NCBI GenBank assembly: GCA_038279365.1
Contig: JAYODI010000067.1
Coordinates: 1-20,230, forward strand
Source: Candidatus Latescibacterota bacterium
GTDB lineage: Bacteria > Latescibacterota > UBA2968
Length of the DNA: 20,230 nt
Direction of reading: 5' to 3'
The notes beneath the pieces were generated by a model that had not been told where the DNA came from, did no database searches, and was given only the letters and a program-made list of their open reading frames with translations. Below are positions 1,040 to 19,792 of this stretch, piece after piece; position 1 is the stretch's first letter; every line of letters starts with the position of its first letter. The position numbers were made by a program, and so were the translations under genes.

Positions 1040-1058
1040 TTTCACAACCTCCCCAGAG

Positions 1059-1364: not shown

Positions 1365-1373
1365 ATCTGCCCC

Positions 1374-3202: not shown

Positions 3203-3234
3203 ACAACCCCTTATCACTGACAAACGCGTTAGAA

Positions 3235-4302: not shown

Positions 4303-4350
4303 GTATTCCTCTCCCGTTGAATGGCGTTGTCACGCTTTTGTGCATGAATG

Positions 4351-5100: not shown

Positions 5101-5109
5101 ATCCCCTCC

Positions 5110-6123
5110 TCAAATTGCCAACTGGTCAAAATAGGGTTTCATAGAATACTGCGCCTCAAATCCCATCAAGTCTTTGGCCAATCGCCAATCAATCAACGAT
5201 GCCGAATCCTCTAAGTGGCCACGCACAGGCACATTGGGATAAAACAAATCTGCCAACACTTTTGATTCTTCACCAATCACATTGTGTTGATCCACAATAA
5301 ACACAGGATGACTGCCTTCATAATCGGCCACCAACGCGCGTTCCATCCCCACATTGGCATCTCGTGGATCTACGAATGAAAAATAATTATGTACCAGATT
5401 CATCGTCTGCAATTCAACAGGTGTCAGACCCTCCCATTCGCGTTTTGTTTCCCACGGTGAAACGGCACGGTTTTTGTCATACACATTTTGAATACGCGTC
5501 ACTTCAGCACGACGTTCCCCCTCAGACATGGCCAACAAATCGCGAATCAACTGCCGGATAGCACAAAAGCGATCTTTGTTTTCTCCTGCAAAATCTTCAA
5601 CCACCACATTGAGCCCAGCGCCAAATCGCACACAAGCACTGCTGATGCCTTCTCGTCGCCAAAAATATTGGCCAATATCCTCCAAAATTTTTTTGCTAAA
5701 TGAATACGCATCGGTTGTAAATGACGGATGCGCTTCATCAACAGGCAAATAATCCAGTTGAAACCCTTTGCGCCCAAAAAAGAAACCAATCGCATTTACA
5801 GAACTGGCCGCCACAACTCGTTTGATCCCCAGCTCTGCACACGCCTGAAAAACGTGAAACGCCGCATAGTCGTTTAATTCAAAAATCTTTTCGGGTGTGC
5901 CTTCTCGGGGAGATGCCAACGCCGCCAAATGCAACACCGCATCCGCCCCAGCAACGCTTGCTTTGACGGCTTCATAATCTTTTAAATCACACGTGTGAAA
6001 TGCCACACCGGGTGTGTTTGCATCCACCACATCTACACCACGCACATCAAAGCCACGATCCACCAAGTGCGCACACACACGTTTTCCAACACGCCCAGAA
6101 CTGCCCGTTACCAAAACCCGCAT
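5110..6123 (-). CDS. NAD-dependent epimerase/dehydratase family (extended SDR) protein
   Basis: MRVLVTGSSGRVG, DAVLHLAA, ASS, YSFSK (YxxxK), FVDPRD. Start moved to ATG 6123 after GAGGT, which removes the overlap with the upstream SDR. Confidence 0.88.
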   Translation of the reverse strand: MRVLVTGSSGRVGKRVCAHLVDRGFDVRGVDVVDANTPGVAFHTCDLKDYEAVKASVAGADAVLHLAALASPREGTPEKIFELNDYAAFHVFQACAELGIKRVVAASSVNAIGFFFGRKGFQLDYLPVDEAHPSFTTDAYSFSKKILEDIGQYFWRREGISSACVRFGAGLNVVVEDFAGENKDRFCAIRQLIRDLLAMSEGERRAEVTRIQNVYDKNRAVSPWETKREWEGLTPVELQTMNLVHNYFSFVDPRDANVGMERALVADYEGSHPVFIVDQHNVIGEESKVLADLFYPNVPVRGHLEDSASLIDWRLAKDLMGFEAQYSMKPYFDQLAI

Positions 6124-6136
6124 TGGATACCTCGCT

Positions 6137-6964
6137 TTATCGCAATTCAATACCTGGGTGGTCACGGAAAAACTTTGCCTGTGCCCATCCAAAATTTTCT
6201 TGTAGTTGGATGGTCAACCCACCATCAACCGCCAACGATTGCCCCGTAATAAACGATGCTTCATCTGAGCACAAAAAACGAACCGCATTGGCAATGTCTT
6301 CTGGTTTACCAGCACGCCGAACTGGGTATTGCGCCTCTGTTATCGCAAACAAACCAGGGTTTTTCTTCCAATTCTCGGCAATCTTCTCCGTCACAATATG
6401 CCCAGGACACACGGCATTCACACGAATACCCTTGGGGCCAAAATCAATGGCCATCTGTCGTGTCATGCCCACCACAGCTGTTTTGGCCGTGTCATAAGCC
6501 AATGTATTAGGTGCAGCCAACAACCCATGTACCGAAGCCGTGTTCACAATCGCCCCACCACCCGACTTGACCATTTCGGGCACCGCAAATTTGACCCCTA
6601 AAAAAATGGCCTTGGTTAAAATATTCATCACCCAATCCCACGAACTCTCGGTCAAGGTCTCGGCACTGCCATCGGGCTCTTTACGCCCCCACCCATTGTT
6701 CACCAAAATATCCAATCGCCCCCACACATCTACTGCATGTTTTACCATTGCCTCAATGTCTTCGCGCTTAGTCAAATCGGTCACGCACGCTTCTGCTTGC
6801 CCACCTGCTTGGCGAATACGTGCAACATTTTCTTCGGCCCATTCGCCATTTACATCGGCCACCAACACCCGTGCACCTTCTTCGGCCAACCGACGCGCCG
6901 TTGCCCCACCAATGCCACGTGCCCCACCTGTTACAATGGCCACACGGTCTTGTAAACTCGACAT
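6137..6964 (-). CDS. Short-chain dehydrogenase/reductase (classical SDR)
   Basis: TGGARGIG, LDILVNNG, NTAS, YDTAK, IRVNAVCPG, FITGQSLAVDGG. Start at ATG 6964 after GGAGAAG. Confidence 0.93.
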   Translation of the reverse strand: MSSLQDRVAIVTGGARGIGGATARRLAEEGARVLVADVNGEWAEENVARIRQAGGQAEACVTDLTKREDIEAMVKHAVDVWGRLDILVNNGWGRKEPDGSAETLTESSWDWVMNILTKAIFLGVKFAVPEMVKSGGGAIVNTASVHGLLAAPNTLAYDTAKTAVVGMTRQMAIDFGPKGIRVNAVCPGHIVTEKIAENWKKNPGLFAITEAQYPVRRAGKPEDIANAVRFLCSDEASFITGQSLAVDGGLTIQLQENFGWAQAKFFRDHPGIELR

Positions 6965-6996
6965 ATCTTCTTCTCCGTTTTTCAATAAATTTCAGC

Positions 6997-7018
6997 GCAG
7001 GAATAAATTCTGCCCTAC
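6997..7018 (-). repeat. Possible single GTAG-type REP-like palindrome
   Basis: Minus strand reads GTAGG-GCAGAAT-TT-ATTCCTGC: a GTAG tetranucleotide followed by an imperfect hairpin, in an intergenic gap. Only one copy in the window. Confidence 0.3.
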
Positions 7019-7123
7019 CAATGGGAAAGTCCTGCGGACTCAAAATCACTATCAAACCATTGGCGATTCATTGAAATGACTTTCATAAACAAACACTCCA
7101 AAAGTCGCTTCGACATTCATCCC

Positions 7124-8059
7124 CTAATTTCCAACTTCTGTTTGATTGATCGGGGTATGATGACGCCCTTTCATCAGCTTTGTAAGCGCATCATTATACG
7201 GTGCTTTGAGGCCCAATTTTTCACTTTCGCGTACCACATATCCATTCAGTGCATCAATTTCGGTCATGCGTCCCCGATCCAAATGTTGTTTCATTGACAC
7301 GCGATGAAACTTAACAGCAGAATATTCCTTTATAAATTTTAGTGGATTTTTCTCGGGTATTTGGATGCCCTTTGCCTGAACCAATGCCAAAACCTCTTCA
7401 ATAATCAATGTTTGAAATTCATCCAATTCGGGTACCTCGCGAATATGGCCAGGGCGCAGATTGGTAATGGCACAAATGGCATTCAACCCACAATTGTGCA
7501 CAAACTTGCCCCAAATGGTCGCCATAATATCGTCTTCCAAAACAGGCTCCACATCAGCCTTGTGCATACGGTCATATACGGCTTGTAACCGCTCAGATTT
7601 GACCTTGTTCAACTCCCCCAAATAGGTGGGCCCTTTGTTGGTATGTGTCACCTGTCCTGGTGCTTTCAGATCGCCACTGTGAAAAGTCAACCCCGCCATC
7701 ACACGATCTTGCCCCAACACCTCGGTCAACACCTCCACATTGCCCAATCCATTTTGCAATGTCAGCGCAAACCCATCGTCCTTAAGCAAGGCCTTTGCCG
7801 CTTCTGCGGCATCACGCGTGTTATACGCATTTACCGTAATAATGGCCACATCGGCTTTTTTTGCTTCGGCAGGATGCATTGTTGCATCCACTTTGGCAAC
7901 AAAGTCTCCGTGTAAACCCGACATCTGTAACCCACCCGCACGCATGGCATTAACGTGATCTTCCCACACATCAATCATGGTCACATCTTCGCCAATACGT
8001 GCCAAATTTGCGCCATAAACACAGCCCATATTGCCAGCACCAATCACTGCAAAATGCAT
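7124..8059 (-). CDS. Ketopantoate reductase (PanE/ApbA) family protein
   Basis: VIGAGNMG, LTLQNGLG, IWGKFVHNCGLN (catalytic Lys), SMKQH...TEIDALNG (catalytic Glu). Start is ATG 8059 or GTG 8065 after AAAGGGG. Confidence 0.9.
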   Translation of the reverse strand: MHFAVIGAGNMGCVYGANLARIGEDVTMIDVWEDHVNAMRAGGLQMSGLHGDFVAKVDATMHPAEAKKADVAIITVNAYNTRDAAEAAKALLKDDGFALTLQNGLGNVEVLTEVLGQDRVMAGLTFHSGDLKAPGQVTHTNKGPTYLGELNKVKSERLQAVYDRMHKADVEPVLEDDIMATIWGKFVHNCGLNAICAITNLRPGHIREVPELDEFQTLIIEEVLALVQAKGIQIPEKNPLKFIKEYSAVKFHRVSMKQHLDRGRMTEIDALNGYVVRESEKLGLKAPYNDALTKLMKGRHHTPINQTEVGN

Positions 8060-8079
8060 ATTCACATCCCCTTTAAAAA

Positions 8080-8853
8080 TTACAAATCACTGCGCCAACT
8101 GTCACCCACATCGGCGGTTTGACCACCATCAACCGCCAAAATCGCTCCCGTTATAAAAGACGCCTCATCAGAAGCCAAAAACAAAACCGCTTGTGCCAAC
8201 TCTTTGGACGTGCCCAACCGCCCCATCGGAAACGTACGGGCAAATGTATCGCGCACATCATCGGGCAAATTTTCACGCAACATGGCTGTATCTGTTGGCC
8301 CAGGTGCAATGGCATTGACCCTCACATTGTCTTTGGCATGATCAATGGCCATCGCCTTGGTCAAAAGCGTCACGCCACCCTTTGATGCCACATAAGCCGC
8401 CGTATTGCCTTTGGCATCATGCGCACCCGTAGACGACGACACATTCACAATCGCGCCACCACCGTGTTTTATCATCTCAGGAATCACGGCCCGACAACAC
8501 AAAAACGTCCCATCCAAATTCACGCCCATCACACGCCGCCACACCTCATAGTCCATATCAATCACCGAACCAAAGGCCAAAATACCTGCACAATTAAACA
8601 AAATATCCACACCACCAAAAACCACCACCGTTTGATCGGCCATTGCCTTCACAGATGCCTCATCCGACACATCCACCTGACAAAACTGCGCTTGCCCACC
8701 TCCTTCGACAATACCCTGTGCCACATCTTGACCAGACAATGCATAATCGGCCACCATCACGCGGGCACCTTCTCGGGCAAATAACTCGGCCGTCGCTTTG
8801 CCAATGCCAGACCCACCACCGGTAACAATGGCAATTTTATTCTGTAGTTTCAT
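8080..8853 (-). CDS. Short-chain dehydrogenase/reductase (classical SDR)
   Basis: TGGGSGIG, DVSD, NCAG, NVSS, YVASK, VRVNAIAPG, FITGAILAVDGG. Confidence 0.93.
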   Translation of the reverse strand: MKLQNKIAIVTGGGSGIGKATAELFAREGARVMVADYALSGQDVAQGIVEGGGQAQFCQVDVSDEASVKAMADQTVVVFGGVDILFNCAGILAFGSVIDMDYEVWRRVMGVNLDGTFLCCRAVIPEMIKHGGGAIVNVSSSTGAHDAKGNTAAYVASKGGVTLLTKAMAIDHAKDNVRVNAIAPGPTDTAMLRENLPDDVRDTFARTFPMGRLGTSKELAQAVLFLASDEASFITGAILAVDGGQTADVGDSWRSDL

Positions 8854-8901
8854 AGATTTTATCTTTTCTTGTCAACAACCATGGGCGCAAAAACCGCGCA
8901 C

Positions 8902-10305
8902 CTATGCATTAGCAAAACCGTTCCAAAACGTCTTACCCCACTCACTCTTTTCATCATCCCAATCATCGCGCCACTGAAACAAAATTGCACGCATTTTTTC
9001 AAGCGTCTCTGCCTGGGCATCATCACCTGCCAAATTGTGCAACTCAAAAGGATCGTTTTGCAAATCGAACAACTGCGTTGTCCGTCGGCCATCCACCACA
9101 TATTCGATCAACTTAAACCGATCATCTTTCACCATGCGTTGATACTGTCGATAGGCAGAAAACAACGTATCTCGCACATGATTGTTGGCATCATGTAATG
9201 CAGATACCAAACTCTTACCTTCAACAGTCTTTGGTATATCCACACCGACCAAATCGCACAGCGTTGGAAAAATGTCTAACAAATAGACATACGCATCTCG
9301 GTGCTCTCCTTTGGGCACACCCTTACCAGAAAAAACAAGGGGCACGCGCACGCTGTGTTCATACATATTCTGCTTGCCAAACAAACCATGTTGCCCAAGT
9401 GCCAACCCATTGTCACCTGCAAAAACCACAATTGTATTGTCGGCTTTTCCTGTGGCGTCAAGCGCTGCCAATACCCGTCCCATCTGTGCGTCCAAATGGG
9501 TCACCATGGCATAATATTCGGCCAAATGCCGTTTCACGTCGTGTGGGTCGCGGGGAAAATCTGCCAATACCTCATCGCGCACTTTCAGATCACCATTGTC
9601 AAATGGATGCCCCCCCATAAAGTTGGCAGGTAACGCGATTTTTTCGGGATCATAGATATCCAAAAATTCTTGTGGCATCGTGCGGGGGTCATGAGGTGCC
9701 ATAAAAGACAGGTACATCATAAAAGGATCATCCGAGTCATATTCCTCAAGATAATCGATTGCAGCTTCAGCAAACAATTCGCTTGAATGTTTACCCGCCG
9801 TCACATGATCACCACGTCGAACTTTGAGTTCATTAGATCGAAATGCGTCAGGGCATTGTGGCAAACGCCCTTCATATTTGCCCAATGGGTCATAATCAAA
9901 TGCCGGAACATTCCAATGATCATCCATTCCACCAAAGAAAATTTCTGCACCATTTGAAAAACTACGGGCATAAGACGCTGGGCCATTGTGCCACTTGCCC
10001 GTTCCCCAAGTTTGATATCCTTGTGCCTGAAAATGCTCCCCCATTAACACATGTTCATCGGGGATGTTTTGCCCAGCACCCTCCAAATGAAACAACGTAC
10101 GCCCCGTATGCAACATGGCCCGACTCGGCATACAAATCGCCCCCGACGTGCCGCCCGGAATATGTGCATGCGTAAAGGTTGTACCTTCGGCCACCAAACG
10201 ATCCATTGTGGGCGTTTGAATTTCGGCATTGCCCAAGGCATGAATGGTATCAAAACGTTGATCATCCGTAAAAAAGAACAGAATATTGGGTTTGCCATTG
10301 CTCAT
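8902..10305 (-). CDS. Formylglycine-dependent (Cys-type) sulfatase, probably cytoplasmic
   Basis: KPNILFFFTDDQR, CMPSRAMLHTG (CxPxR), GKWH, APHDP, GDNG, GKQNMYEHSVRVP, LFDLQNDPFE; GGAAGGA SD; no signal peptide. Confidence 0.95.
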   Translation of the reverse strand: MSNGKPNILFFFTDDQRFDTIHALGNAEIQTPTMDRLVAEGTTFTHAHIPGGTSGAICMPSRAMLHTGRTLFHLEGAGQNIPDEHVLMGEHFQAQGYQTWGTGKWHNGPASYARSFSNGAEIFFGGMDDHWNVPAFDYDPLGKYEGRLPQCPDAFRSNELKVRRGDHVTAGKHSSELFAEAAIDYLEEYDSDDPFMMYLSFMAPHDPRTMPQEFLDIYDPEKIALPANFMGGHPFDNGDLKVRDEVLADFPRDPHDVKRHLAEYYAMVTHLDAQMGRVLAALDATGKADNTIVVFAGDNGLALGQHGLFGKQNMYEHSVRVPLVFSGKGVPKGEHRDAYVYLLDIFPTLCDLVGVDIPKTVEGKSLVSALHDANNHVRDTLFSAYRQYQRMVKDDRFKLIEYVVDGRRTTQLFDLQNDPFELHNLAGDDAQAETLEKMRAILFQWRDDWDDEKSEWGKTFWNGFANA

Positions 10306-10525
10306 AACAAATATCCTTCCCCAGTCTCATACGTTGTGTATAGATAACAACGGTCCAAGGTATATTTTGAGGCCTGCTTATATCAAACGGAATCCACCCT
10401 CAGATAACGGCAATTAACTTCTATCTCAAATGAAAGTCAAGCCGATCGAAAGCCCCTGCCTTTGCACTTTCAAATTGGGCGCCAAGACCCTATATTACCC
10501 ACTCATCCCAATGAGGAGACGATCA

Positions 10526-11632
10526 TTGAACCACATAATATACCTGACCATTGCGCTCATATCTCTTTATCCTACAATTGGATACGCGCAGAGCAACATT
10601 CTAAGAAAGGAACGCAATATGAAATATCATATGTATGTCGCCGTTTTTGGCGACCAAAAAATTCTGCGCTATGATCTCAACCCCGAAACCGGTGCCCTCA
10701 CGCCCGTTGGCGAAGTTGATGTCGATGGGGGGGTAGGCCCTCTCTGTACTGATCCCCAACAACAATATTTGTATGCCGGATTGCGCTCCACCCAAAAAGT
10801 ATCGAGTTTTGCCATTGATCAAACAAATGGCGCCCTTGAACTCATCAACACCGTAGACTTTGATTCTGACCCCTGTTATCTCAGCACAGACCGAACGGGT
10901 CGCTATCTTTTTTCTTCTTTTTATGGTGCAGGTGTGGCTGCAGTAAATGCACTCGACAGCACCGGAGCCGTAACAGCCCCACACCGACAATGGATCACCA
11001 CCAAAGGCCATGCCCACTGCATTCACCCCGACCGCACCAACCAATATGTGTTTGTGCCACACACCATGCCCGCAAATGTCATTTACCAATTTACATTTGA
11101 CGAAACCACCGGTGACCTAACGGCCAACAACACCCCCACAATCAAACCACCACGCGGCGAAGGCCCCCGTCACTACGAATTTCATCCCACGCTTAATGTG
11201 GTATATACCTCCAATGAAAATGGCAACAGCGTAACGGTCTATGATCACGACATCAAAACAGGAACACTCTCACGTCGTCAAAACCTCTCAACATTACCCG
11301 AAGATTTTGACGGCAAGAGCACCTGTGCACAAATACATATCCATCCTAAGGGTAAGTTTTTATACATCACAAATCGCGGGCACGACAGCATTGCACGCTT
11401 TGGTGTCAAAGCCGATGGTTCACTCGAAGCCTTGGGACAAACCCCCACAGAGCCCATACCACGCGTCTTTAACATCGATCCTACAGGCAACTTCTTATTT
11501 GCCGCAGGTCAAGGTTCCAACAAAATGGAAGGTTTTCGAATCAACCCTGAAACAGGTGATCTCAAATCGCTCAAGATCTACGACATTGGCAAACAACCTA
11601 TGTGGATCATGATTTTGAAATTGGGCAAATAA
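10526..11632 (+). CDS. 6-phosphogluconolactonase / cycloisomerase-2 family 7-bladed beta-propeller lactonase
   Basis: PCYLSTD, HAHCIHPD, GPRH, NRGHDSI and PRVFNIDPTG are Pgl/YbhE-family motifs. Start is uncertain: TTG 10526 (GAGGAG SD, gives a signal-peptide-like N-terminus), ATG 10511, or ATG 10619 (AAGGA SD). Confidence 0.88.
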   Translation: MNHIIYLTIALISLYPTIGYAQSNILRKERNMKYHMYVAVFGDQKILRYDLNPETGALTPVGEVDVDGGVGPLCTDPQQQYLYAGLRSTQKVSSFAIDQTNGALELINTVDFDSDPCYLSTDRTGRYLFSSFYGAGVAAVNALDSTGAVTAPHRQWITTKGHAHCIHPDRTNQYVFVPHTMPANVIYQFTFDETTGDLTANNTPTIKPPRGEGPRHYEFHPTLNVVYTSNENGNSVTVYDHDIKTGTLSRRQNLSTLPEDFDGKSTCAQIHIHPKGKFLYITNRGHDSIARFGVKADGSLEALGQTPTEPIPRVFNIDPTGNFLFAAGQGSNKMEGFRINPETGDLKSLKIYDIGKQPMWIMILKLGK

Positions 11633-11655: not shown

Positions 11656-11688
11656 AAAAAGGCGATCTCTTATGAGATCGCCTTTTTT
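11656..11688 (+). terminator. Rho-independent terminator (bidirectional-type) after the lactonase gene
   Basis: AAAAAGGCGATCTC-TTAT-GAGATCGCCTTTTTT: perfect stem with a T-tract, 23 nt after the stop codon. Confidence 0.9.
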
Positions 11689-11711
11689 GTTCGTAACAAA
11701 TGAGAAAACCA

Positions 11712-11823
11712 TGATGAATTTTTCTACAGCGAGGCGTTGAATTTTTCCACACCCACCAACTGCCTAAACAGATTATAAACAACCAGTTAAAAAAACATCT
11801 CAAAAGTGTTGAATAATACAACA
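11712..11823 (+). promoter_or_regulatory. Three 17-bp upstream activator (enhancer-binding protein) sites
   Basis: TGATGAATTTTTCTACA (11712-11728), CGTTGAATTTTTCCACA (11735-11751) and TGTTGAATAATACAACA (11807-11823): a shared near-palindromic TGT-N11-ACA pattern about 100-210 bp upstream of a sigma-54 promoter. Confidence 0.7.
11777..11789 (+). promoter_or_regulatory. IHF-like binding site
   Basis: AAACAACCAGTTA, one mismatch to WATCAANNNNTTR, between activator sites 2 and 3. Confidence 0.4.
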
Positions 11824-11869
11824 TTTCCCACAACCAATCGCCTCCCCATCAAAAATCCAAGCAAATTAA

Positions 11870-11882
11870 AAACAAACACTTA
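11870..11882 (+). promoter_or_regulatory. IHF-like binding site
   Basis: AAACAAACACTTA, one mismatch to WATCAANNNNTTR, with an A-rich 5' flank, between the activator sites and the -24 box, which is the usual IHF position. Confidence 0.5.
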
Positions 11883-11896
11883 AGCAAAAAAAACCA

Positions 11897-11913
11897 TTGG
11901 CATACACCTTGCC
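11897..11913 (+). promoter_or_regulatory. Sigma-54 (-24/-12) promoter
   Basis: TTGGCATACACCTTGCC: GG (11899-11900) and GC (11911-11912) separated by exactly 10 nt, close to YTGGCACGNNNNTTGCW; 48 nt before the ATG of an operon that encodes a GAFTGA activator. Confidence 0.88.
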
Positions 11914-11961
11914 ATACCATCAAGCAACCCACACCCTTCATTTTAACAGGAGGAAAAGTTC

Positions 11962-12624
11962 ATGGTTGCCATATTTGTCGTACTCACCATTCTCGTTTGT
12001 GTGTCCATTGACGCACTTGTACAAAGAAAACAAATACCACAAACAGAGAATCAAGTCATCAGTAATCTCATGCCCGAACAAGCACGATTGTATTCTGGAC
12101 ACACCTGGGCAACAATTGCCGCGCCCAATCAAGTAGATATTGGCATAGACGAATTTGTCAGCCAAGCCTTAGGCCCCATTGATCGCTTGATCGTTCGGCC
12201 AGCGGGTACTCAGCTCTTACAGGGAGAACCTATGTTAGAAATAGAGCGAGGCAGTCGCAGCTTGCAAGTGCAGGCCCCCATAAGTGGCATCATAAAAAAA
12301 AGCAATTCTCAATTTTGGAATCAACAAAGATTTTTACCCGAAAACCACCCGAACTCGGAAAATTGGATTTATACCATTCACCCCACAAACCTCCTGACCG
12401 AATGGCCCAACCTGCTCACCGGGCAAGTGGCACGTCAGTGGTTGGAAGCTGAATGGCAACGCTTGGCGCAATGGTTAACCAACGGTCACACATTGCGCAC
12501 GGAATACGCCTTGCAAGATGGTGGATTGCCCGTACCGGGTATCTTACAACACCTCGATCATCAGGAATGGCAAGCCTTTCAAAAAATATTTCTGAACACC
12601 TCGAAGGGAGGCGATCTCACATGA
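11962..12624 (+). CDS. Membrane-anchored glycine-cleavage-H-like protein (no lipoyl lysine), copy 1
   Basis: N-terminal TM helix, then YSGHTWA...IGIDEF...LG, G..L.QGEP, APISG and NWIY, which are GcvH-fold landmarks; C-terminal LQDGG extension; AGGAGG SD. Confidence 0.8.
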   Translation: MVAIFVVLTILVCVSIDALVQRKQIPQTENQVISNLMPEQARLYSGHTWATIAAPNQVDIGIDEFVSQALGPIDRLIVRPAGTQLLQGEPMLEIERGSRSLQVQAPISGIIKKSNSQFWNQQRFLPENHPNSENWIYTIHPTNLLTEWPNLLTGQVARQWLEAEWQRLAQWLTNGHTLRTEYALQDGGLPVPGILQHLDHQEWQAFQKIFLNTSKGGDLT

Positions 12625-13370
12625 CCACAGTAGGCATGTTAATTGACCTCACCCGATGCAAAGGGTGCAATGCCTGTGTGTATGCCTGTAAAGAACAAAA
12701 CAACTTGCCAGCAGACAATCCAAACCAATTGGGTGCACACACGTGGGTGGCCGTTCAACAAAAAGAAAACACATATGTGAGAAAACAATGCATGCACTGC
12801 ATAGACCCAGCCTGTGTCTCTGTGTGCCCCGTGGCAGCCCTACAAAAACAAAAAAATGGCCCTGTCACTTATGACGAAGACCGCTGCATGGGCTGTCGAT
12901 ATTGCATGATGGCCTGCCCGTTTCAAATTCCCAAATACGAATGGGCCCAAACCCAGCCCCGTGTGCAAAAATGCATTTTATGCGCAGAAAAAAGGCTCAA
13001 ACAAAACAAACAACCTGCTTGCACAGAAATTTGTCCCACGCAGGCAGCCATATTTGGAGATCGCGAAAAACTCATCCTCGAAGCCCAAACGCGCATCCGC
13101 AATCATCCCAAACGCTATGTCAATCATATTTATGGATTACAAGAAGTGGGGGGCACATCGGTATTGTATCTCTCGGCAGTCCCTTTTGCACAGTTGGGTT
13201 TTCCCACAGGCGTTGAAACAGAACCCTATCCGCGCCTTACTTGGAAAGTATTGTCACAGATACCCAATGTACTGGCAGTAGGTGGCACACTGATGTTGGG
13301 GCTGTGGTGGATCAGTAACCGCCGAGAAAAAGTGGCACGTGAAGAATCCACCCAAAATAAGGAGGTATAA
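12621..13370 (+). CDS. HybA/NrfC/DmsB-family 4x[4Fe-4S] protein with a C-terminal membrane anchor
   Basis: CKGCNACVYAC, CMHCIDPACVSVCP, CMGCRYCMMACP, CILC...PACTEICP (16 Cys); HIYGLQEVGGTSVLYLS as in HybA/FdnH; C-terminal TM helix. Start at ATG 12621 (GGGAGG SD, ATGA overlap), 249 aa. Confidence 0.92.
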   Translation: MTTVGMLIDLTRCKGCNACVYACKEQNNLPADNPNQLGAHTWVAVQQKENTYVRKQCMHCIDPACVSVCPVAALQKQKNGPVTYDEDRCMGCRYCMMACPFQIPKYEWAQTQPRVQKCILCAEKRLKQNKQPACTEICPTQAAIFGDREKLILEAQTRIRNHPKRYVNHIYGLQEVGGTSVLYLSAVPFAQLGFPTGVETEPYPRLTWKVLSQIPNVLAVGGTLMLGLWWISNRREKVAREESTQNKEV

Positions 13371-13371
13371 C

Positions 13372-14913
13372 GTGAAACGGCGTTTTACATTTTGGCAAAC
13401 AATTGGCATCCTCCTGATGCTCTTCGGTCTATGGGCTACCTTTATTCGTATAACAAAAGGTTTGGGAGCCATGACCAACCTATCCGATGCCGTTCCTTGG
13501 GGCATTTGGATTGGGTTTGATGTCTTGGTTGGTGTCGGTTTGGCAGCTGGTGGTTTCACCATTACAGCAGTTGTACATATTTTTGGGCTCGAGCGATTCA
13601 AACCCATCGTGAGACCCACCATTCTCACCGCATTTTTGGGCTACCTCTTGGTCATCGTAGGGCTCTTATTTGATCTGGGACGTCCCTTTCGCATTTGGCA
13701 TCCCATCATTATGTGGAACCCACACTCGGTCATGTTTGAAGTTGCCTGGTGTGTCACACTCTATACCACGGTTTTAATGCTCGAGTTTAGTCCCATTGTT
13801 TTAGAAAAATTCAACCTGCAAAAACCACTCAAAATTGTGCGTGCCATTACCGTGCCCACCGTCATTTTAGGCGTCCTGCTCTCCACCCTTCACCAATCTT
13901 CATTGGGCACCCTCTACATTATTATGCCCGATAAACTTTATGGTCTTTGGTACACACCTTTTTTACCCGTTCTCTTTTTTGTAAGTGCCATTGCCGGTGG
14001 ATTGAGCATGGTCATTGTCGAATCGGGTCTAAGTGCTCGCGTATTTGGTAGACACCTCGAAAACGATTTACTCACAGACATGAGTCGTGTCATTGTTGCG
14101 GTACTCACGCTCTATTTGGTGATCAAATTGCAAGATATGGCCAGTCGAAATGCCCTTCCTCTTCTCCTGATCGCAACCCCCGAATCCTTTTTGTTTTGGG
14201 TTGAAGTTGGTTTTGGCGCCATTTTGCCCCTTATCTTACTTGCCATTCCCCCCATTCGCCAAGATCCTTCAGCACGTTTTTATGCCGCCCTTCTCGTCGT
14301 TTTGGGATTTGTGCTCAACCGCCTCAACATTGCCACAACAGGTATGCAACGCGGCCTTCAAGCAAACTATTTTCCATCGCCTTACGAATTGGCAATTACG
14401 GGCATGCTCCTTGTGCTGGGTTTTGTCGCCTTTTCATTGGCCGTAAAGTACCTACCTATTTTTCCCCAACAAGAATCGCATCTCTCACCAGCACTTTCTC
14501 ACCCGACGCCCCATTGGGTTTCTGTTGCCACGCGCGGCGCATTAATGGGGTTGGCAGCCGTTTTGTTGGGAGGTGTCTTCTTTATTGACTTTGGCGTTCC
14601 GATTATGGCATCAGAAACCAAACCTATGCCTCGCATCGTGGCAAATGACACACCCATTCGCCTGCCCCAAGCCATCACCTTGCCCAGAAGCCCTGACAGC
14701 CCAGGTCCAGTCACGTTTCGACATACCACGCATGTCGATCAAAACACACCAGCGTGTGGTAATTGTCATGCAAATACCTATTCCTTGTTTATACGCACCA
14801 CCCAGTCATTGGGTGAAACCATGCATTCGCCTCACTATTGTGGACAATGTCACAATGGAGAAAAAGCTTTTAACTGGGAAGACAACTGCGAATCTTGTCA
14901 TGTAGAACCCTAA
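13372..14913 (+). CDS. HybB/NrfD-family integral membrane subunit fused to a C-terminal c7-type triheme cytochrome c
   Basis: TNLSDAVPWGIWIGFDV, LAAGGF, DLGRP, SVMFEVAWC, STLHQSSLG and NRLN are HybB/HmcC-type motifs; the tail GPVTFRHTTH...CGNCH...M...CGQCHNGEKAF...CESCH has three CxxCH. Start at GTG 13372 after TAAGGAGG; 513 aa. Confidence 0.92.
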   Translation: MKRRFTFWQTIGILLMLFGLWATFIRITKGLGAMTNLSDAVPWGIWIGFDVLVGVGLAAGGFTITAVVHIFGLERFKPIVRPTILTAFLGYLLVIVGLLFDLGRPFRIWHPIIMWNPHSVMFEVAWCVTLYTTVLMLEFSPIVLEKFNLQKPLKIVRAITVPTVILGVLLSTLHQSSLGTLYIIMPDKLYGLWYTPFLPVLFFVSAIAGGLSMVIVESGLSARVFGRHLENDLLTDMSRVIVAVLTLYLVIKLQDMASRNALPLLLIATPESFLFWVEVGFGAILPLILLAIPPIRQDPSARFYAALLVVLGFVLNRLNIATTGMQRGLQANYFPSPYELAITGMLLVLGFVAFSLAVKYLPIFPQQESHLSPALSHPTPHWVSVATRGALMGLAAVLLGGVFFIDFGVPIMASETKPMPRIVANDTPIRLPQAITLPRSPDSPGPVTFRHTTHVDQNTPACGNCHANTYSLFIRTTQSLGETMHSPHYCGQCHNGEKAFNWEDNCESCHVEP

Positions 14914-14968
14914 AGAAATCATGCATATCTCACATTTGTGAGGTAATGTTATTCATAGAGGCAGTCCT

Positions 14969-15601
14969 ATGGTCGTCTTATTGGTAGCACTCACATTTGT
15001 CATCTGTTTTTTGATAGACAGATTGGCAAATCAAAAACCCAACATCCCCCATTCCATATGGATCCAACCCGACCAAGCCTTTCAAAAAACGCTTGGTGTA
15101 GAATATAGAGTAGATGGCTATCGCATAAGATCAAACGTTTATTTTCATACCGGACACATGTGGGTCAAACCAGAGGGGCCACATAGGGCGCGCATTGGTT
15201 TAGATGACTTTGCTTGTCAACTCAACGCACCCATCCATACCATCACCCGAACACACGAACATCAACTCAGGCAAGGTGCGCCATGCCTGCGCATTCATAC
15301 ACACGCACACACCATAGACCTTCTTGCACCTATTGGCGGTAAAATTATTGCCACCAATGAAACCGTCTTCCAAAACCCGAACCAAATGACAACAGACCCA
15401 TTTGGAGCCTGGTTATTTGTTGTTGAAAACAAACACCTCCCCACAGAACAAAACAATCTCATACAAGGTGAGTGGGTTTTTGTTTGGGTCAAACAAGAGG
15501 CGGCCCAATTAAGACAGAGCTACCGAATGGGCCTACATATAAACGATGCGTTTCTCAATACATTCTTTGGGCATGAGGCGGCATCATGTTCTGGTCATTA
15601 A
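14969..15601 (+). CDS. Membrane-anchored glycine-cleavage-H-like protein (no lipoyl lysine), copy 2
   Basis: N-terminal TM helix; YFHTGHMWV...ARIGLDDFA, LRQGAP, APIGGKIIATN and NPNQMTTDPFGAWLF are GcvH-fold landmarks; GAGG SD. Confidence 0.8.
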   Translation: MVVLLVALTFVICFLIDRLANQKPNIPHSIWIQPDQAFQKTLGVEYRVDGYRIRSNVYFHTGHMWVKPEGPHRARIGLDDFACQLNAPIHTITRTHEHQLRQGAPCLRIHTHAHTIDLLAPIGGKIIATNETVFQNPNQMTTDPFGAWLFVVENKHLPTEQNNLIQGEWVFVWVKQEAAQLRQSYRMGLHINDAFLNTFFGHEAASCSGH

Positions 15602-17205
15602 GCGTTCGTTTATTCACCCTCATCTTTGTCACAGCCATCCTCTGTTTGGGTGGATTGGCTTGGTTTGAGGTCAAAAACCACACCGCGCATTTAGAAGAAG
15701 AAAGCATTCGCGGGGCCCAGCGTCTAAGCGACACCATTAGGCGCAGCACGCGATCAAGTATGCTCAACAACCGCAAAGAAGATGTATATGAAATTATTCA
15801 AAATGTGGCTGCACAACCAGGCATTGAACGCATTCGCCTCTTCAAACGCACAGGCCACATACGTTATACCACAGACAACACCGAAGCAGGTTCCATAGTT
15901 GATGTCGAAAAAGAGGCCTGTCTGACTTGCCATCAGGATAACCAAAAACCCATAAACGGCCAAGGATGTCGTGCCCGTACCCGCATATTTTATAGTGGCA
16001 AAAACCGTATTTTGGGCCTCATCACGCCCGTTTATAATGAAAACACATGTACTGGCGCAAGTTGCCATGCCTCCGTGACAGAGGAACCCATTTTGGGGGT
16101 ATTAGATGTACATCTCTCATTAAAAGAAATCGACGACACCCTCATAGAGCAAAATCGCGATTTTTTGCTCATCACCTATGTGCTCATGCTGGGGCTTGCA
16201 ACCATCTGCGGGGTATTTGTTTGGCAATTTGTACACAAACCTGTCAAATCACTCATAACCGGTACCACCCAATTGTCGAAAGGCAATCTCGGCCATCGCA
16301 TCCCCATCCAATCACATACAGAAATGGGATGCTTAGCCGAATCATTCAATCAAATGGCAAGTGAATTGGAACTGGCCCAACAGCAACTCACAGACTGGAA
16401 CCACTCTTTAGAAAAACGTGTGGAAGAAAAAACCCTTATCTTAAAACAAGCACAAACCAAATTGATACAAAACGAAAAAATGGCCTCTTTGGGCACTCTA
16501 TCTGCCGCTGTAGCACACGAAATCAACAACCCTTTAAGTGGTGTGCTCACATACACACGTTTGTTAAGAAAATTATTAGATACAGTCCCATCATCCCCAG
16601 AGCGCTTACCCGACATCCACAAATATTTAGAAGTCATCGCCTCAGAAGTTTCACGATGTGGCAAAATAGTGAGCAATCTGCTCGATTTTTCGAGACAATC
16701 AAACATCCGCATTGCTTCGGCCAATCTAAACCAAGTGCTCGATCGCGCCCTCTTCTTAATTGGCCACAAACTGAAATTGCAAAATATACAATTGCAACAA
16801 GACCTCTTGCCAGATCTACCACAAATCACCTGTGATGCCGATCAAATTCAACAAGCCCTCTTGGCCTTATTGCTCAATGCCATAGAAGCCATGCCCGATG
16901 GTGGAAGCTTAAAAGTAACCACCAGAAAAACAGATGTAGAGGTTCAAATCTTCATTACCGACACGGGGCTTGGCATGTCTCCTTCACAAATTGCACATAT
17001 TTTTGAGCCCTTTTACACCACCAAAAGTGCGCTCAATGGTGTTGGTTTGGGCTTGGCCATTGTATACGGCATCATCCACCGACACAAAGGACACATCGAC
17101 GTACAATCAAAAGAAGGTTCTGGCACAACGTTTGAGATATCACTGCCCATAGCCACACAGATTACGGAATACGATACTTCTCAGTTTGAAGGAGCGGTCC
17201 TATGA
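15586..17205 (+). CDS. Membrane sensor histidine kinase (NtrB-type) with HAMP domain and heme-c motifs in the extracytoplasmic domain
   Basis: Two TM helices flank a domain containing CLTCH and CTGASCH; HAMP (PVKSL...EMGCLAESFNQM); H-box AHEINNPL; N-box NAIEAM; DTGLG, FEPFYTTK, GVGLGL. Confidence 0.95.
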   Translation: MFWSLSVRLFTLIFVTAILCLGGLAWFEVKNHTAHLEEESIRGAQRLSDTIRRSTRSSMLNNRKEDVYEIIQNVAAQPGIERIRLFKRTGHIRYTTDNTEAGSIVDVEKEACLTCHQDNQKPINGQGCRARTRIFYSGKNRILGLITPVYNENTCTGASCHASVTEEPILGVLDVHLSLKEIDDTLIEQNRDFLLITYVLMLGLATICGVFVWQFVHKPVKSLITGTTQLSKGNLGHRIPIQSHTEMGCLAESFNQMASELELAQQQLTDWNHSLEKRVEEKTLILKQAQTKLIQNEKMASLGTLSAAVAHEINNPLSGVLTYTRLLRKLLDTVPSSPERLPDIHKYLEVIASEVSRCGKIVSNLLDFSRQSNIRIASANLNQVLDRALFLIGHKLKLQNIQLQQDLLPDLPQITCDADQIQQALLALLLNAIEAMPDGGSLKVTTRKTDVEVQIFITDTGLGMSPSQIAHIFEPFYTTKSALNGVGLGLAIVYGIIHRHKGHIDVQSKEGSGTTFEISLPIATQITEYDTSQFEGAVL

Positions 17206-18554
17206 TCGCCACACCCAACATTCTTGTTGTAGACGATGAAAAAGTGATTCGTGACTCATTGCACGATTGGTTTGCCGAAGATGGTTATGATATTGATGTG
17301 GCCGAAAATGCCCAAGAAGCACTTAAGCATATAGATCACACAATCTACGACATTGTACTGCTCGACATCAAAATGCCATGCATGGACGGCTTAACCTTAC
17401 AAGAAAAAATAATCAAACAAATTCCTCAGGCCATCATCATTATTATGACCGCTTATGCTTCTGTGGAAACAGCCGTTCAAGCCCTTAAGATGGGCGCTTA
17501 TGATTATCTTCAAAAACCCATAGATCCCGATGAACTGCAGCACATCATCGAAAAAGCCGTAGAACGCCAACATTTGGTTCATGAAAATCGCCAACTCAAA
17601 AAACGTCTTGAAACCCTCTCACAAGAAGACATGCCCGAACTGGTTGGGCAAAGCCCACAAATGCAACGCGTCAAAAGTTTGATTCACACGGTGGCTCCAA
17701 CTGATACCACGGTACTCATATTGGGAGAAAGTGGTACCGGCAAAGAACTCGTTGCACGTGCCATTCATCGTCATAGCCCTCGCCACCACATGCCCTTGGT
17801 CACTGCACATTGTGCAGGCTTACCAGAAGGCCTTATTGAAAGCGAACTGTTTGGACACGAAAAAGGGGCCTTTACAGGAGCAGCATATCGGCGCAAAGGC
17901 AAATTTGAACTCGCAGATAAAGGCAGTATATTTTTTGATGAAATTGCCGACATCAGCCCCAAAACCCAAATAGACTTACTGCGTATTTTACAAGAACGCA
18001 ATTTCACGCGATTGGGGGGAACTCATCCTATTGAAACAGATTTCCGCGTGATTGCGGCAACCAACCGCAACCTTGCACTTGCCGTATCAGAAGGCCACTT
18101 TCGCCAAGATTTGTATTATCGGCTCGATGTTTTTACCATAGAAATTCCCCCCCTGCGTGAACGCCCCCAAGACATTGTTCTTTTGGCCCAACACTTTCTC
18201 ATAAAATATTCTCAAAAAATGAATAAATCTATCCAAGGTTTTTCACCAGATGCCACAAAAGCCCTCACCCAATATTATTGGCCAGGAAATGTGCGTGAGC
18301 TCGAAAACACCATCGAGCGTGCTGTGGTCATTCAAAAAGGGAGTGAAATACACATAGATAACTTAAAAGAAGCCCAATCCAAAACATCAACAGACACAAC
18401 CAATCTATCCCTTGCCGCCCAAGAAAAACAACACATTGCATCCGTCCTTCAACTCATGCAAGGCAACATCAGCCAAACAGCCAAAACCCTCGACATCGAC
18501 CGGGTTACTCTTTATAACAAAATTAAGAAGTATGACCTCAAACGCTCACACTAG
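17202..18554 (+). CDS. Sigma-54-dependent NtrC-family response regulator (REC-AAA+-Fis HTH)
   Basis: LVVDDE, LLDIKMP (phospho-Asp), QKP; GESGTGKE, ESELFGHEKGAFTGA, FFDEI, FRQDLYYRL, WPGNVRELEN; HTH NISQTAKTLDIDRVTLYNKIKKY; ATGA overlap with the kinase. Confidence 0.97.
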   Translation: MIATPNILVVDDEKVIRDSLHDWFAEDGYDIDVAENAQEALKHIDHTIYDIVLLDIKMPCMDGLTLQEKIIKQIPQAIIIIMTAYASVETAVQALKMGAYDYLQKPIDPDELQHIIEKAVERQHLVHENRQLKKRLETLSQEDMPELVGQSPQMQRVKSLIHTVAPTDTTVLILGESGTGKELVARAIHRHSPRHHMPLVTAHCAGLPEGLIESELFGHEKGAFTGAAYRRKGKFELADKGSIFFDEIADISPKTQIDLLRILQERNFTRLGGTHPIETDFRVIAATNRNLALAVSEGHFRQDLYYRLDVFTIEIPPLRERPQDIVLLAQHFLIKYSQKMNKSIQGFSPDATKALTQYYWPGNVRELENTIERAVVIQKGSEIHIDNLKEAQSKTSTDTTNLSLAAQEKQHIASVLQLMQGNISQTAKTLDIDRVTLYNKIKKYDLKRSH

Positions 18555-18558
18555 TGCC

Positions 18559-19098
18559 ATGCCCAGCATTCACTTCTTGCAAATAGGCCATATCTCCCCC
18601 CAGTTATTCTCACCCATCGCACAAGGCATCCAAAACAGTATGAACATGCCCATTCGGCACCACACCGAAACACTTCCGGCACAAACATATGATGCCACGC
18701 GTGGGCAATACCACGCCACGCGCTTACTCGAATTTGTTGAATCTCAGACCCTGCCCTCCCAAGACCTCATATTGGGCCTCACCAATGTTGACCTGTTTAT
18801 TCCAATACTCACATTTGTCTTTGGTGAAGCACGTCTCAACAAACCCAGTGCCATACTATCTCTTTTTAGGCTCATGCCACAATATTACGGCCTGCCTCCC
18901 AATGACACACTCACCATACAACGCACCATCACAGAATCCGTCCATGAACTTGGTCACGCATTGGGGCTGCTTCATTGTAGCCAATATGACTGTGCCATGC
19001 ACACCTCTCGCACGGCTGACGACATAGATCTAAAAAAACCCCACTATTGCCCCAATTGTACCCACCATTTACACAAACCACATCACACCCTTACATAA
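18559..19098 (+). CDS. Archaemetzincin (peptidase M54) family Zn metalloprotease
   Basis: YDATRGQY, TNVDLF...FVFGEA, HELGHALGLLHC-x4-C-x-M...CPNC, the archaemetzincin signature with the second Cys4 zinc site. Start moved to ATG 18559, 4 nt after the regulator stop; 179 aa. Confidence 0.92.
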   Translation: MPSIHFLQIGHISPQLFSPIAQGIQNSMNMPIRHHTETLPAQTYDATRGQYHATRLLEFVESQTLPSQDLILGLTNVDLFIPILTFVFGEARLNKPSAILSLFRLMPQYYGLPPNDTLTIQRTITESVHELGHALGLLHCSQYDCAMHTSRTADDIDLKKPHYCPNCTHHLHKPHHTLT

Positions 19099-19126
19099 AA
19101 AAAGACGCCCTTTAAAAAGAGCGTCC
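19097..19126 (-). terminator. Rho-independent terminator between convergent genes (best formed on the minus strand)
   Basis: Minus strand GACGCTCT-TTTTAA-AGGGCGTC-TTTTTTT, a stem with one G-U pair and a 7-T tract, about 20 nt after the stop at 19148. Confidence 0.75.
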
Positions 19127-19147
19127 TTGGTCAAATTCATATTTTTG

Positions 19148-19792
19148 TTAATCGGCACCAATAAACCAAGCAAAAAACCAACACAACCCACCAATCAAAA
19201 TCAACACAAATGGGTTGATAAATGGATATTTTTGTCGCCAACGCCGAAGCCATCTTTGCGTGGGCGTTTCACTTTTGCGCCTTCTGCGCCGTCGTTTGCC
19301 CGAATCGTCGGCAGGTTGCCCTTGCCACACATGTTGATTGTCGAGAAAAACGGGGTCACCCTCTTTGTACTTTTTTTGGCCTTCATAAAATGGAGGCTCC
19401 AAGGCCCGCCAAATTTCTCTTACCAAAACATTGATGCGAAAGGGTTTGGCAATAAAGGCCGAAATGCCCAGCTTATTGATCACTTCTCGAGCGGCCTTAT
19501 CGATACTGGCCGAAACAATAATCACAGGCGTTGTTGCACCAGATTCTCGCAAAAACTGCAACAGCTTCACACCATCAATATTGGGCATCACCAAATCGAG
19601 CAAAATCAGATCGGGGTCATTCTCAGCCAAAGCATCCAATGCTTCGGTCCAAACATTGGCTGTGATCGTTTTAAAACGATTATGGCGCAACACATGCGTG
19701 ATCGACGTCATAATAGACGGATCATCTTCAATAACCAAAATCGTTTTTTCCTCGGCAATGATACCAGGATTGGGTGTGTAAGATTCTTCCAT
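19148..19792 (-). CDS. Response-regulator receiver domain protein with an Arg-rich linker and C-terminal TM helix
   Basis: ILVIEDD, LILLDLVMP, VSA and AKPF form a complete REC domain; followed by GKRRRRRRKS and the hydrophobic FVLILIGGLCWFFAWFIG at the extreme C-terminus. Confidence 0.85.
   Translation of the reverse strand: MEESYTPNPGIIAEEKTILVIEDDPSIMTSITHVLRHNRFKTITANVWTEALDALAENDPDLILLDLVMPNIDGVKLLQFLRESGATTPVIIVSASIDKAAREVINKLGISAFIAKPFRINVLVREIWRALEPPFYEGQKKYKEGDPVFLDNQHVWQGQPADDSGKRRRRRRKSETPTQRWLRRWRQKYPFINPFVLILIGGLCWFFAWFIGAD

Follow-up and report, generated by a model that had tools for sequence, protein, structure and literature searches.

We wondered what could bring together, in one operon, the iron-sulfur (FeS) and NrfD subunits of a quinone-coupled membrane module, two membrane-tethered relatives of the glycine cleavage H protein (GcvH), a sensor kinase with c-type heme motifs, a sigma-54 activator and a zinc protease of the archaemetzincin (M54) family. 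The question is raised by a contig (C51) of 20,230 nt from a Candidatus Latescibacterota bacterium, which was analyzed at its full length and is called the window here; the genome comprises 6.03 Mb in 199 contigs and is ~98.5% complete. According to our reading of the open reading frames (ORFs) and their junctions, seven overlapping or closely spaced ORFs on the plus strand (11962-19098) form a single unit. This association is conserved across phyla, and the trio of kinase, activator and protease is its most constant unit. As an explanation we propose a redox-induced module that would transfer electrons between quinol and the periplasm, equipped with a regulatory trio and with cytoplasmic H-fold adaptors that are possibly clients of the protease; we are about half convinced of this reading. 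A literature search found no published description of the cassette, with most subscription journals outside its reach, and the cassette appears to be undescribed; PMC5701242 refers to the ordinary gcvH gene alone and has no bearing on it.

Conservation of the cassette and of its regulatory trio

In the phylum of the window, a strong match to the GcvH-like protein with its transmembrane (TM) helix was found in 8 of 168 genomes, this one included, and all eight also have an archaemetzincin. The 38 other matches were weak (E 3e-7 or worse). Eight loci from the seven other genomes were compared by tblastn with the seven window proteins. Two of them (L024, L027) hold the whole set in a changed gene order, L025 holds the set minus the protease, and at L028 and L029 the set is interrupted by contig ends. 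In genome G093 the cassette is split: a GcvH-like-FeS-NrfD-c7 locus (L022) lies apart from a locus with two GcvH-like genes, kinase, activator and protease (L023), and L026 of genome G092 resembles the latter.

We then scanned GTDB with one genome per species, anchored only on the GcvH-like gene. The alignment used for the scan contained the 11 closest GcvH-like proteins, a 27-protein alignment being too diverse, and 53 of 144 pattern matches were confirmed as loci. These bear about ten phylum-level labels, namely Ignavibacteriales, Chlorobiota, Bacteroidota, Calditrichota, Zixibacteria, Poribacteria, Acidobacteriota/Terriglobia, Deltaproteobacteria/Deferrimicrobiaceae, Eisenbacteria and Tectomicrobia. 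Recurrence in other genomes had been set beforehand as a test of the association, which a first-pass annotation of this DNA had proposed, and the association passed it: NrfC and NrfD are present at 40 of the 53 loci (24 of the 27 that are uncut within 1.5 kb of the cluster) and all five gene classes at 18 (14 of the 27 uncut loci). Kinase and activator occur at 24 loci (16 of the 27 uncut ones) and the protease at 21. In 37/42 loci, less than 400 nt separate the end of a GcvH-like gene from the NrfC gene downstream of it. The linkage is frequent, not obligate.

Each of the 21 protease-bearing loci also holds kinase and activator. A search for the M54 family in ten further genomes returned 10 copies, eight of which have as neighbors the same kinase, at full length (37-41% identity), and the same activator. 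Of these eight, five are also near an NrfC, NrfD or GcvH-like gene; the other two of the ten copies stood alone. In the HK-AMZ-NtrC order, the protease (AMZ) even sits between its partners, the histidine kinase (HK) and the activator. As all 21 loci and eight of ten further copies link the protease to kinase and activator, the bacterial protease subgroup appears to belong with the two-component system. The GcvH-like and NrfCD genes would be the regulated output, because the sigma-54 promoter stands before them. Within the phylum of the window, M54 genes occur in 13/168 genomes, among them all eight with the GcvH-like family, and one further copy comes after an NtrC-type gene at a contig start. 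At two loci of genome G006 (L085, L086), the archaemetzincin gene directly follows an aldehyde dehydrogenase gene; a microcompartment EutN gene is also found upstream at L086.

The kinase carries two heme motifs, CLTCH (residue 112) and CTGASCH (residue 155), in a periplasmic PAS-like domain. Its description as a heme-motif kinase in the first-pass annotation is borne out by the orthologues, of which 31/33 keep both motifs; in the kinase alignment they are invariant or nearly so. An AlphaFold2 (AF2) model of the sensor (predicted local distance difference test score, pLDDT, 86.1) found the extracellular domain of WalK as its best Foldseek matches (E 4e-8 to 5e-6), with the PAS-like heme-c sensors GSU0935 and GSU0582 also among the matches (E 2.3e-4 and 5e-3; 17-20% identity). 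By fold and motifs the sensor is a PAS-like domain, to which c-type hemes are predicted to be attached covalently. The activator has all the hallmarks of an NtrC-type enhancer-binding protein (Sigma54_activat 227 bits, Response_reg 107, HTH_8 44, GAFTGA). The archaemetzincin, the sole M54 gene of its genome, belongs to its family with 154.1 bits for NF033823 (cut-off 145; PF07998 family), HExxHxxGxxH and four Cys. HExxHxxGxxH is intact in 27/27 cassette-linked copies, and the protein is a predicted protease with an intact catalytic motif.

GcvH-like proteins and the FeS/NrfD module

Both GcvH-like proteins match GCV_H (PF01597) with 42 and 44 bits (cut-off 22.2; E 1e-10 for protein 1 and 1.9e-11 for protein 2) but do not reach the GcvH equivalog TIGR00527 (34.4 and 37.5 bits, cut-off 115.85). 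The N-terminus of each is a hydrophobic helix (MVAIFVVLTIL...) with basic residues after it, an arrangement that by the positive-inside rule would place the H-fold domain in the cytoplasm. In an alignment with the canonical GcvH of the same genome (contig C184), protein 1 has S and protein 2 has A at the position of the lipoyl lysine. The absence of the lipoyl lysine, already noted in the first-pass annotation, extends to the family, with K in this column in 0/11 aligned members and a basic residue often next after it. As judged from these alignments, the GcvH-like proteins cannot be lipoylated, and the invariant columns of the family contain no Cys, Lys or other attachment-type residue. The AF2 model of protein 1 (mean pLDDT 84.6) nevertheless has H-proteins as its top Foldseek matches (1onl_A, E 2e-11, TM-score 0.81 on target). 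It also shows a confident helical C-terminal extension with an invariant D186-G187-G188. This D-G-G tail is absent from protein 2.

We considered an exclusive relation between D-G-G tail and protease, given that ten tail-less loci hold no archaemetzincin (L066-L069, L072, L073, L075, L076, L080, L081). The idea was dropped because these loci represent about three lineages, one of them is cut at the trio, and 4/5 of the genomes carry the protease elsewhere.

A link between the H fold and signaling comes from the loci of the Eisenbacteria type. In 4/4 of them (L067, L073, L075, L081; ~9350-10550 in each) a receiver domain and a GcvH domain share one reading frame, and Pfam assigns Response_reg plus GCV_H to the L081 frame. 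Together with the positive residues after the helix, these fusions are evidence, on the level of sequence, for an H-fold domain that is cytoplasmic and tied to signaling. A search among 1047 candidates found no longer or fused GcvH-like forms at E <= 0.001, a result that is weak as evidence; the receiver-GcvH fusions turned up via the loci. Genes for c7 cytochromes, NrfC and NrfD lie upstream of the Eisenbacteria-type fusion, which is itself preceded by a second kinase gene and by one for a receiver on its own. In Ignavibacteriales and Bacteroidetes records (L031, L033, L074), GcvH-like pairs without NrfCD in their vicinity are followed, after ~170 nt, by a conserved lipoprotein-like ORF of 194 aa that has no Pfam match. 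In the small ORFs without Pfam match beside some loci, no D-G-G motif and no other link was found.

Complex prediction for the protease and residues 30-220 of GcvH-like protein 1 gave a median score of 0.39, with 0.00 for the best control; the runs agree in at least 86% of contacts, and the pLDDT of the partner is at least 78. The mark for the complex score was reached by 116/157 solved complexes and by 2/215 mismatched pairs, counts that are rough owing to the custom alignments used. At scores of 0.60 or lower it was reached by 18/157 solved complexes only, and by both of the mismatches that passed. The prediction, which returned no interface, weakly supports a complex of protease and GcvH-like protein 1.

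The FeS protein of the module (Fer4_11, 74 bits) scores below the equivalog cut-offs of HmcB (NF045715; 255 bits, cut-off 420) and HybA (NF008134; 226 bits, cut-off 263), and its best solved relative is FdnH (1kqf_B, 2.7e-33). FeS partners of NrfD dock on the periplasmic face in known complexes, and FdnH is exported together with its catalytic partner. The window protein has neither RRxFLK nor a hydrophobic stretch ahead of its first Cys cluster (12621-12680) and lacks the twin-arginine translocation (Tat) signal of exported subunits, a correction to the first-pass annotation. A classical RRxFLK signal is present in 17/44 loci and absent from 27/44, and the FeS protein is signal-less in 7/7 c7-fusion loci whose FeS N-terminus is visible. 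In some Terriglobia records (among L066, L068, L069 and L072), the open frame holds an RRFLN remnant immediately ahead of the start codon, which looks like what is left of a trimmed signal.

The membrane subunit is a member of the NrfD family (PF03916, 92.8 bits over residues 46-336, cut-off 25.8) with about ten hydrophobic segments and alternating positive loops. It stays below the equivalogs HmcC (NF045714; 330 bits, cut-off 550) and HybB (NF008133; 279 bits, cut-off 450). In contrast, the c7 domain exceeds the cut-off of its model (TIGR04257, 60.2 bits, cut-off 40; PF14522, 41 bits). Its heme motifs CGNCH, CGQCH and CESCH lie in residues 454-521, and PDB sequence matches cover this c7 part only (3ov0_A, 3.4e-18; GSU1996 c7 domains). 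The initial description of the c7 domain has to be amended, as the domain is joined to NrfD and comes after an additional, eleventh hydrophobic segment. NrfD has a strongly basic N-terminus. An inverted NrfD with a cytoplasmic FeS subunit was rejected in view of this positive N-terminus and of the c7 domain, which must be periplasmic given the eleventh helix. The fusion is a minority form: CxxCH motifs occur in 9/45 NrfD frames and are missing from 36/45. Since the fusion is that rare while the diheme kinase is nearly always present, the wire from c7 hemes to kinase hemes suggested earlier cannot be a general mechanism. In a Poribacteria record (L039, 9357-11594), the NrfD frame runs on into a domain whose CxxCH motifs number ten, not three.

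We also looked for a catalytic partner of the module. Flank genes were clustered all against all and their representatives annotated with Pfam, which covers recurrent flank ORFs, a subset of the genes. The genes that recur code for ABC transporters and secreted repeat proteins; several lineages add multiheme cytochromes of the NapC/NirT-plus-c7 (ImcH-like), multiheme-plus-cytochrome-b561 (CbcL-like) and MtrC/MtrF-like types; in Eisenbacteria, c7 arrays lie directly upstream of NrfC. No hydrogenase or molybdopterin enzyme was found in the Pfam-annotated flanks of any phylum, in line with the earlier observation that no catalytic partner is encoded nearby and at odds with the idea that homologous loci always carry one. 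The genome of the window has 0 matches to the NiFe hydrogenase large subunit and three molybdopterin enzymes, one with its own FeS and NrfD-like genes (contig C32), one with its own FeS gene (C135) and one of the cytoplasmic NuoF/NuoG type (C146). Judged by these gene contexts, there is no orphan molybdenum enzyme in this genome. At C146 (14332-17169), downstream of a NuoF-like gene, a NuoG-like molybdopterin formate dehydrogenase gene is read through one in-frame TGA; because of this single TGA, it is probably a selenocysteine enzyme.

The view that NrfC/NrfD pairs normally need a separate partner was overstated in the first-pass annotation, as Cbc4 (CbcSTU) and SirCD have a small cytochrome only; what stands is that no catalytic partner is encoded nearby. 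Periplasmic partners for a quinol dehydrogenase should be plentiful, since the genome encodes 22 ORFs with at least three CxxCH motifs, up to 20 in one ORF. Multiheme ORFs cluster on C57 (3476-14129), C193 (70-6237) and C49 (27878-34226), which fits a lifestyle of periplasmic or extracellular electron transfer.

Operon layout, promoter and surroundings

As first annotated, the seven genes are co-oriented, with overlaps or gaps of at most 55 nt (Table 1). The junctions GcvH-like 1/FeS and kinase/activator are ATGA overlaps and GcvH-like 2/kinase overlap by 16 nt; gaps of 55 nt and 4 nt separate NrfD from GcvH-like 2 and the activator from the archaemetzincin. By this reading the junctions are those of a single operon. 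NrfD more likely starts at GTG 13372, 6 nt past AAGGAGG and 1 nt past the FeS stop, than at GTG 13339, which gives a 32-nt overlap. The mechanically called archaemetzincin ORF opens at TTG 18412 and overlaps the activator gene; its start is most likely ATG 18559.

Table 1. Coordinates of the cassette genes and of flanking sequence elements in the window
Feature	Position	Strand	Remarks
GcvH-like protein 1	11962-12624	+	220 aa; N-terminal TM helix, H-protein fold without lipoyl lysine, helical C-terminal extension
NrfC/HybA/HmcB-like four-cluster FeS protein	12621-13370	+	C-terminal TM helix, no Tat signal
NrfD/HybB/HmcC-like membrane subunit with extra TM and triheme c7	13372-14913	+	alternative GTG start 13339
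GcvH-like protein 2	14969-15601	+	210 aa; N-terminal TM helix, H-protein domain, no lipoyl lysine
Sensor histidine kinase	15586-17205	+	TM, periplasmic PAS-like domain, TM, HAMP, HisKA, HATPase
NtrC-type response regulator/sigma-54 activator	17202-18554	+	REC, AAA+ with GAFTGA, HTH_8
Archaemetzincin (M54) zinc protease	18559-19098	+	ATG start; cytoplasmic; HELGHALGLLH and four Cys
Intrinsic terminator of upstream lactonase-like gene (left boundary)	11656-11692	+	inverted repeat and T run
Three 16-nt direct repeats	11713-11823	+	repeat search
Predicted sigma-54 type -24/-12 promoter, TGGCAT-N5-TTGCC	11898-11913	+	motif search
12-pair hairpin (right boundary)	19101-19128		between operon and convergent response-regulator gene

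The predicted promoter TGGCATacaccTTGC at 11898-11912 lies 50 nt ahead of the first ATG. It has GG and GC dinucleotides 10 nt apart in a TGGCAC-N5-TTGC pattern and is the sole match to the sigma-54 motif in the window, for which 0.29 matches are expected; 23/100 shuffles contained at least one. A GGCAC-N5-TTGC-like site lies at most 350 nt upstream of the first cassette gene (GcvH-like/NrfC) in 30/61 loci, against a background of 107 loose matches in 1.65 Mb on both strands. The position of the site ahead of this ATG and its recurrence at other loci argue that it is more than chance, and the -24/-12 promoter of the first-pass annotation is retained. Three copies of a 16-nt direct repeat, at 11713, 11736 and 11808 (reference copy GTTGAATTTTTCCACA; 75-100% identity to the reference), sit 75-185 nt upstream of the -24 element and are possible activator-binding sites. 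They lie in a 270-nt A-rich spacer between the upstream hairpin and the promoter.

Of the two terminators that had been thought to bound the operon, the upstream one is clear, with perfect 14-nt arms (11656-11669/11674-11687) followed by TTTTTTG. The downstream hairpin was scored as a minus-strand terminator and its plus-strand side has no T run. It is thus a clear terminator for the convergent gene, but an uncertain one for the operon. In the product of the convergent gene (19148-19792, minus strand), a receiver domain is followed by a stretch rich in arginine and, at the C-terminus, by a hydrophobic helix; a membrane-anchored response regulator with a single domain, such as this, is unusual. 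The rest of the window (275-11632) is occupied by a minus-strand run of sugar-modifying genes (PhyH-like dioxygenase, polysaccharide deacetylase, two GFO/IDH/MocA oxidoreductases, epimerase, two short-chain dehydrogenases/reductases), which also includes a ketopantoate-reductase-like gene and a sulfatase, and then by a seven-bladed lactonase on the plus strand. Run and lactonase are unrelated to the cassette.

Proposed function, rival explanations and known systems

We propose that the kinase reports the periplasmic redox or ligand state via two c-type hemes in its PAS-like domain and that the activator opens the sigma-54 promoter. The target operon would comprise one to three membrane-tethered, cytoplasm-facing GcvH-fold proteins and a HybAB/HmcBC-type FeS/NrfD pair. 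Since both halves lie behind a single recognizable promoter, the window unit would switch itself on. FeS/NrfD-c7 might act as a minimal quinol:cytochrome c oxidoreductase that exchanges electrons between the menaquinone pool and periplasmic carriers. The GcvH-fold proteins would serve as non-catalytic adaptors on the cytoplasmic face, tying the module to the trio, and the type with the D-G-G tail could be a client, either substrate or partner, of the archaemetzincin. In this scheme we infer the topology, the direction of electron flow, the stimulus of the kinase and the contact between protease and GcvH-fold protein.

A bolder version, which we regard as doubtful, holds that the trio and the lipoate-less GcvH-fold proteins form a portable, proteolysis-coupled signaling device that is added to different membrane redox modules, with the protease acting on D-G-G-tailed H-fold proteins that report or set the state of the module. 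If true, it would provide the first natural substrate for archaemetzincins and a new, cofactor-free role of the H-protein fold as a signaling adaptor.

Several observations weigh against an electron-transfer module that is physically coupled to the trio. Three of the 27 uncut loci have GcvH-like genes without NrfCD, 11/27 have no kinase and activator nearby, and some trios have no GcvH-like genes within 9 kb (L092, L094). As the halves occur apart, their physical coupling is unproven. Four archaemetzincin copies of the phylum (two in G006, one each in G007 and G030) lie in unrelated contexts, and tail and protease are not exclusive at the level of genomes, given that 4/5 genomes with tail-less loci carry an archaemetzincin elsewhere. 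At a complex score as low as 0.39, the calibration of the method makes a pass a false call more often than a correct one, unless the complex was likely beforehand. The fused cytochrome is absent from 36/45 NrfD frames, which leaves most cassettes without a known electron partner. Finally, a Tat signal is missing from the FeS protein in the window and in 27/44 loci, although the c7 domain must be periplasmic and known FeS partners of NrfD dock there; getting the subunit across the membrane is a genuine difficulty, with no Tat-bearing partner in sight.

Two rival explanations bear on the export problem. GcvH-like proteins and protease might be assembly or maturation factors of FeS/NrfD without any role in signaling, the protease trimming a cassette protein much as endopeptidases of the HybD/HycI type trim hydrogenase large subunits, and the H fold keeping the FeS subunit in place at the membrane until it is exported or docks. 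A signal-less FeS subunit in 27/44 loci implies that some helper is needed, the GcvH-like gene is directly upstream of NrfC in 37/42 loci with a start/stop overlap in the window, and the catalytic motif of the protease is kept in all 27 copies. Yet the protease travels with kinase and activator and not with NrfCD, as the HK-AMZ-NtrC order and the trios without NrfCD (L092, L094) illustrate, GcvH-like pairs accompany the trio without NrfCD (L023, L026), and the receiver-GcvH fusions point to signaling. We know of no H-fold protein that serves as a chaperone, and consider the assembly role unlikely. Alternatively, the missing helper could be a Tat-exported periplasmic enzyme encoded elsewhere, which would carry the FeS subunit across and use the module as its membrane anchor, so that the operon would be part of a larger respiratory complex. 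The FdnH-like build of the FeS protein (no signal, C-terminal TM), with FdnH as best solved relative, speaks for such an enzyme, as does the lack of the signal in 27/44 loci. It is decidedly unlikely in view of annotated flanks that contain neither hydrogenase nor molybdenum enzyme across phyla and of a genome without a NiFe hydrogenase match whose three molybdenum enzymes are partnered or cytoplasmic, the result of the genome-wide check for orphan subunits that the first-pass annotation had suggested. Moreover, the 17/44 loci whose FeS protein has its own Tat signal still have no catalytic gene nearby, and the fused or adjacent redox partner, where present, is a c-type cytochrome.

Two further explanations concern the GcvH-like proteins. 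They might be true carriers with another covalent group or a bound small molecule on the hairpin, shuttling between cytoplasmic metabolism and the module. The H-protein fold is confidently retained, the residue after the former lysine column is often basic, and LbpA, in the accessible part of its description, shows that relatives of H protein serve redox systems besides glycine cleavage (PMC6067878). Against a carrier speak a lipoyl column with K in 0/11 aligned members and the lack of any invariant Cys, Lys or other attachment-type residue, and no lipoate ligase or sulfur-transferase gene was seen in the window or the annotated flanks; we think such a carrier very unlikely. To our knowledge, NrfD has no cofactor that could pass electrons across the membrane to a cytoplasmic carrier. 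The gene order might also reflect shared regulation only, with GcvH-like proteins and protease forming an envelope or redox-stress response that shares the sigma-54 regulon of the quinone module and is otherwise uncoupled from it. That the halves of the cassette occur apart is what this would predict. However, GcvH-like 1 and FeS genes are tightly coupled in translation, and the same adjacency is found in 37/42 loci under about ten labels, which shared regulation alone seldom preserves and which renders this explanation highly improbable.

The proposed redox-induced module with its regulatory trio would be of interest for several reasons. In anaerobic respiration, few quinone-coupling units are commoner than NrfD-type modules, and how cells sense when to deploy them is largely unknown; the cassette offers a compact case with sensor, activator, promoter and target within 7.4 kb. 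It gives a conserved genomic context to the bacterial archaemetzincins, a family of which, according to the accessible literature, very little is known as to biological role (PMC3427221). It contains a large family of H-protein look-alikes minus the residue that defines H-protein function, and it poses a puzzle of biogenesis, as an FeS subunit expected in the periplasm has lost its export signal in most lineages. Its carriers are uncultured sediment and soil bacteria with about ten phylum-level labels, and several copies lie beside cytochromes of the extracellular electron-transfer type.

All parts of the cassette come from known families, and by analogy its core resembles known minimal quinol dehydrogenases under sigma-54 control. 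For Cbc4 of Geobacter sulfurreducens (CbcSTU, GSU0068-0070) and SirCD of Shewanella, transfer from quinol to a periplasmic carrier is predicted or shown in the accessible text of the reports (PMC13591261, PMC11434368, 10.1101/2021.04.15.440034). Like the cassette, both are described there as an FeS protein, an NrfD/PsrC-type membrane protein and only a small multiheme c-type cytochrome, with no catalytic subunit. In Cbc4, however, CbcS is given as a separate membrane-anchored tetraheme protein, whereas the cassette cytochrome is a triheme c7 domain fused to NrfD. The same accounts of Cbc4 make no mention of GcvH-like genes, a diheme kinase, a sigma-54 activator or an archaemetzincin, and it is in composition only that Cbc4 and the cassette are alike. 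The best NCBIfam models for the FeS/NrfD pair are those of the Desulfovibrio Hmc complex (HmcB/HmcC) and of hydrogenase 2 from E. coli (HybA/HybB), with all four scores below the cut-offs; unlike these systems, the cassette locus has no HmcA, HmcD, HmcE or HmcF, no hydrogenase and no Tat signal on the FeS subunit.

With respect to regulation, BccR-CbcBA of G. sulfurreducens comes close. A sigma-54-dependent regulator induces an inner-membrane quinol:cytochrome oxidoreductase operon as redox conditions change, and cbcBA, as far as its accessible description goes, also codes for hypothetical proteins of unknown role. In contrast to the cassette, CbcB is a diheme b-type cytochrome and no NrfD/FeS pair, and that description includes no heme-c kinase, GcvH-like protein or protease. 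The sensor domain of the kinase shares an extracytoplasmic PAS-like fold and CxxCH with the Geobacter chemoreceptors GSU0935 and GSU0582 (PDB 3b42, 3b47) but feeds a histidine kinase, has two motifs (CxxCH and CxxxxCH) and finds its best fold matches in the heme-free WalK domains.

The GcvH-like proteins have the fold of H protein and of LbpA from the sHdr system, and the gene of LbpA too, in the portion of the report available, accompanies a redox system instead of glycine cleavage (PMC6067878). They differ from both by the missing lipoyl lysine, the N-terminal membrane anchor and, in protein 1, the helical extension with D-G-G. The protease resembles AmzA and AMZ-tk of family M54 in its motif HExxHxxGxxHCx4CxM...CxxC and in a family score above the cut-off. 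The archaemetzincins described are archaeal or mammalian enzymes whose natural substrate is unknown, as stated in the accessible text of the reports (PMC3427221, PMC4681839). For substrates of bacterial archaemetzincins, our literature search, from sources accessible in part, found only structural and enzymological work on archaeal enzymes. Unlike AmzA and AMZ-tk, the bacterial subgroup represented by the cassette is genomically tied to a sigma-54 two-component system.

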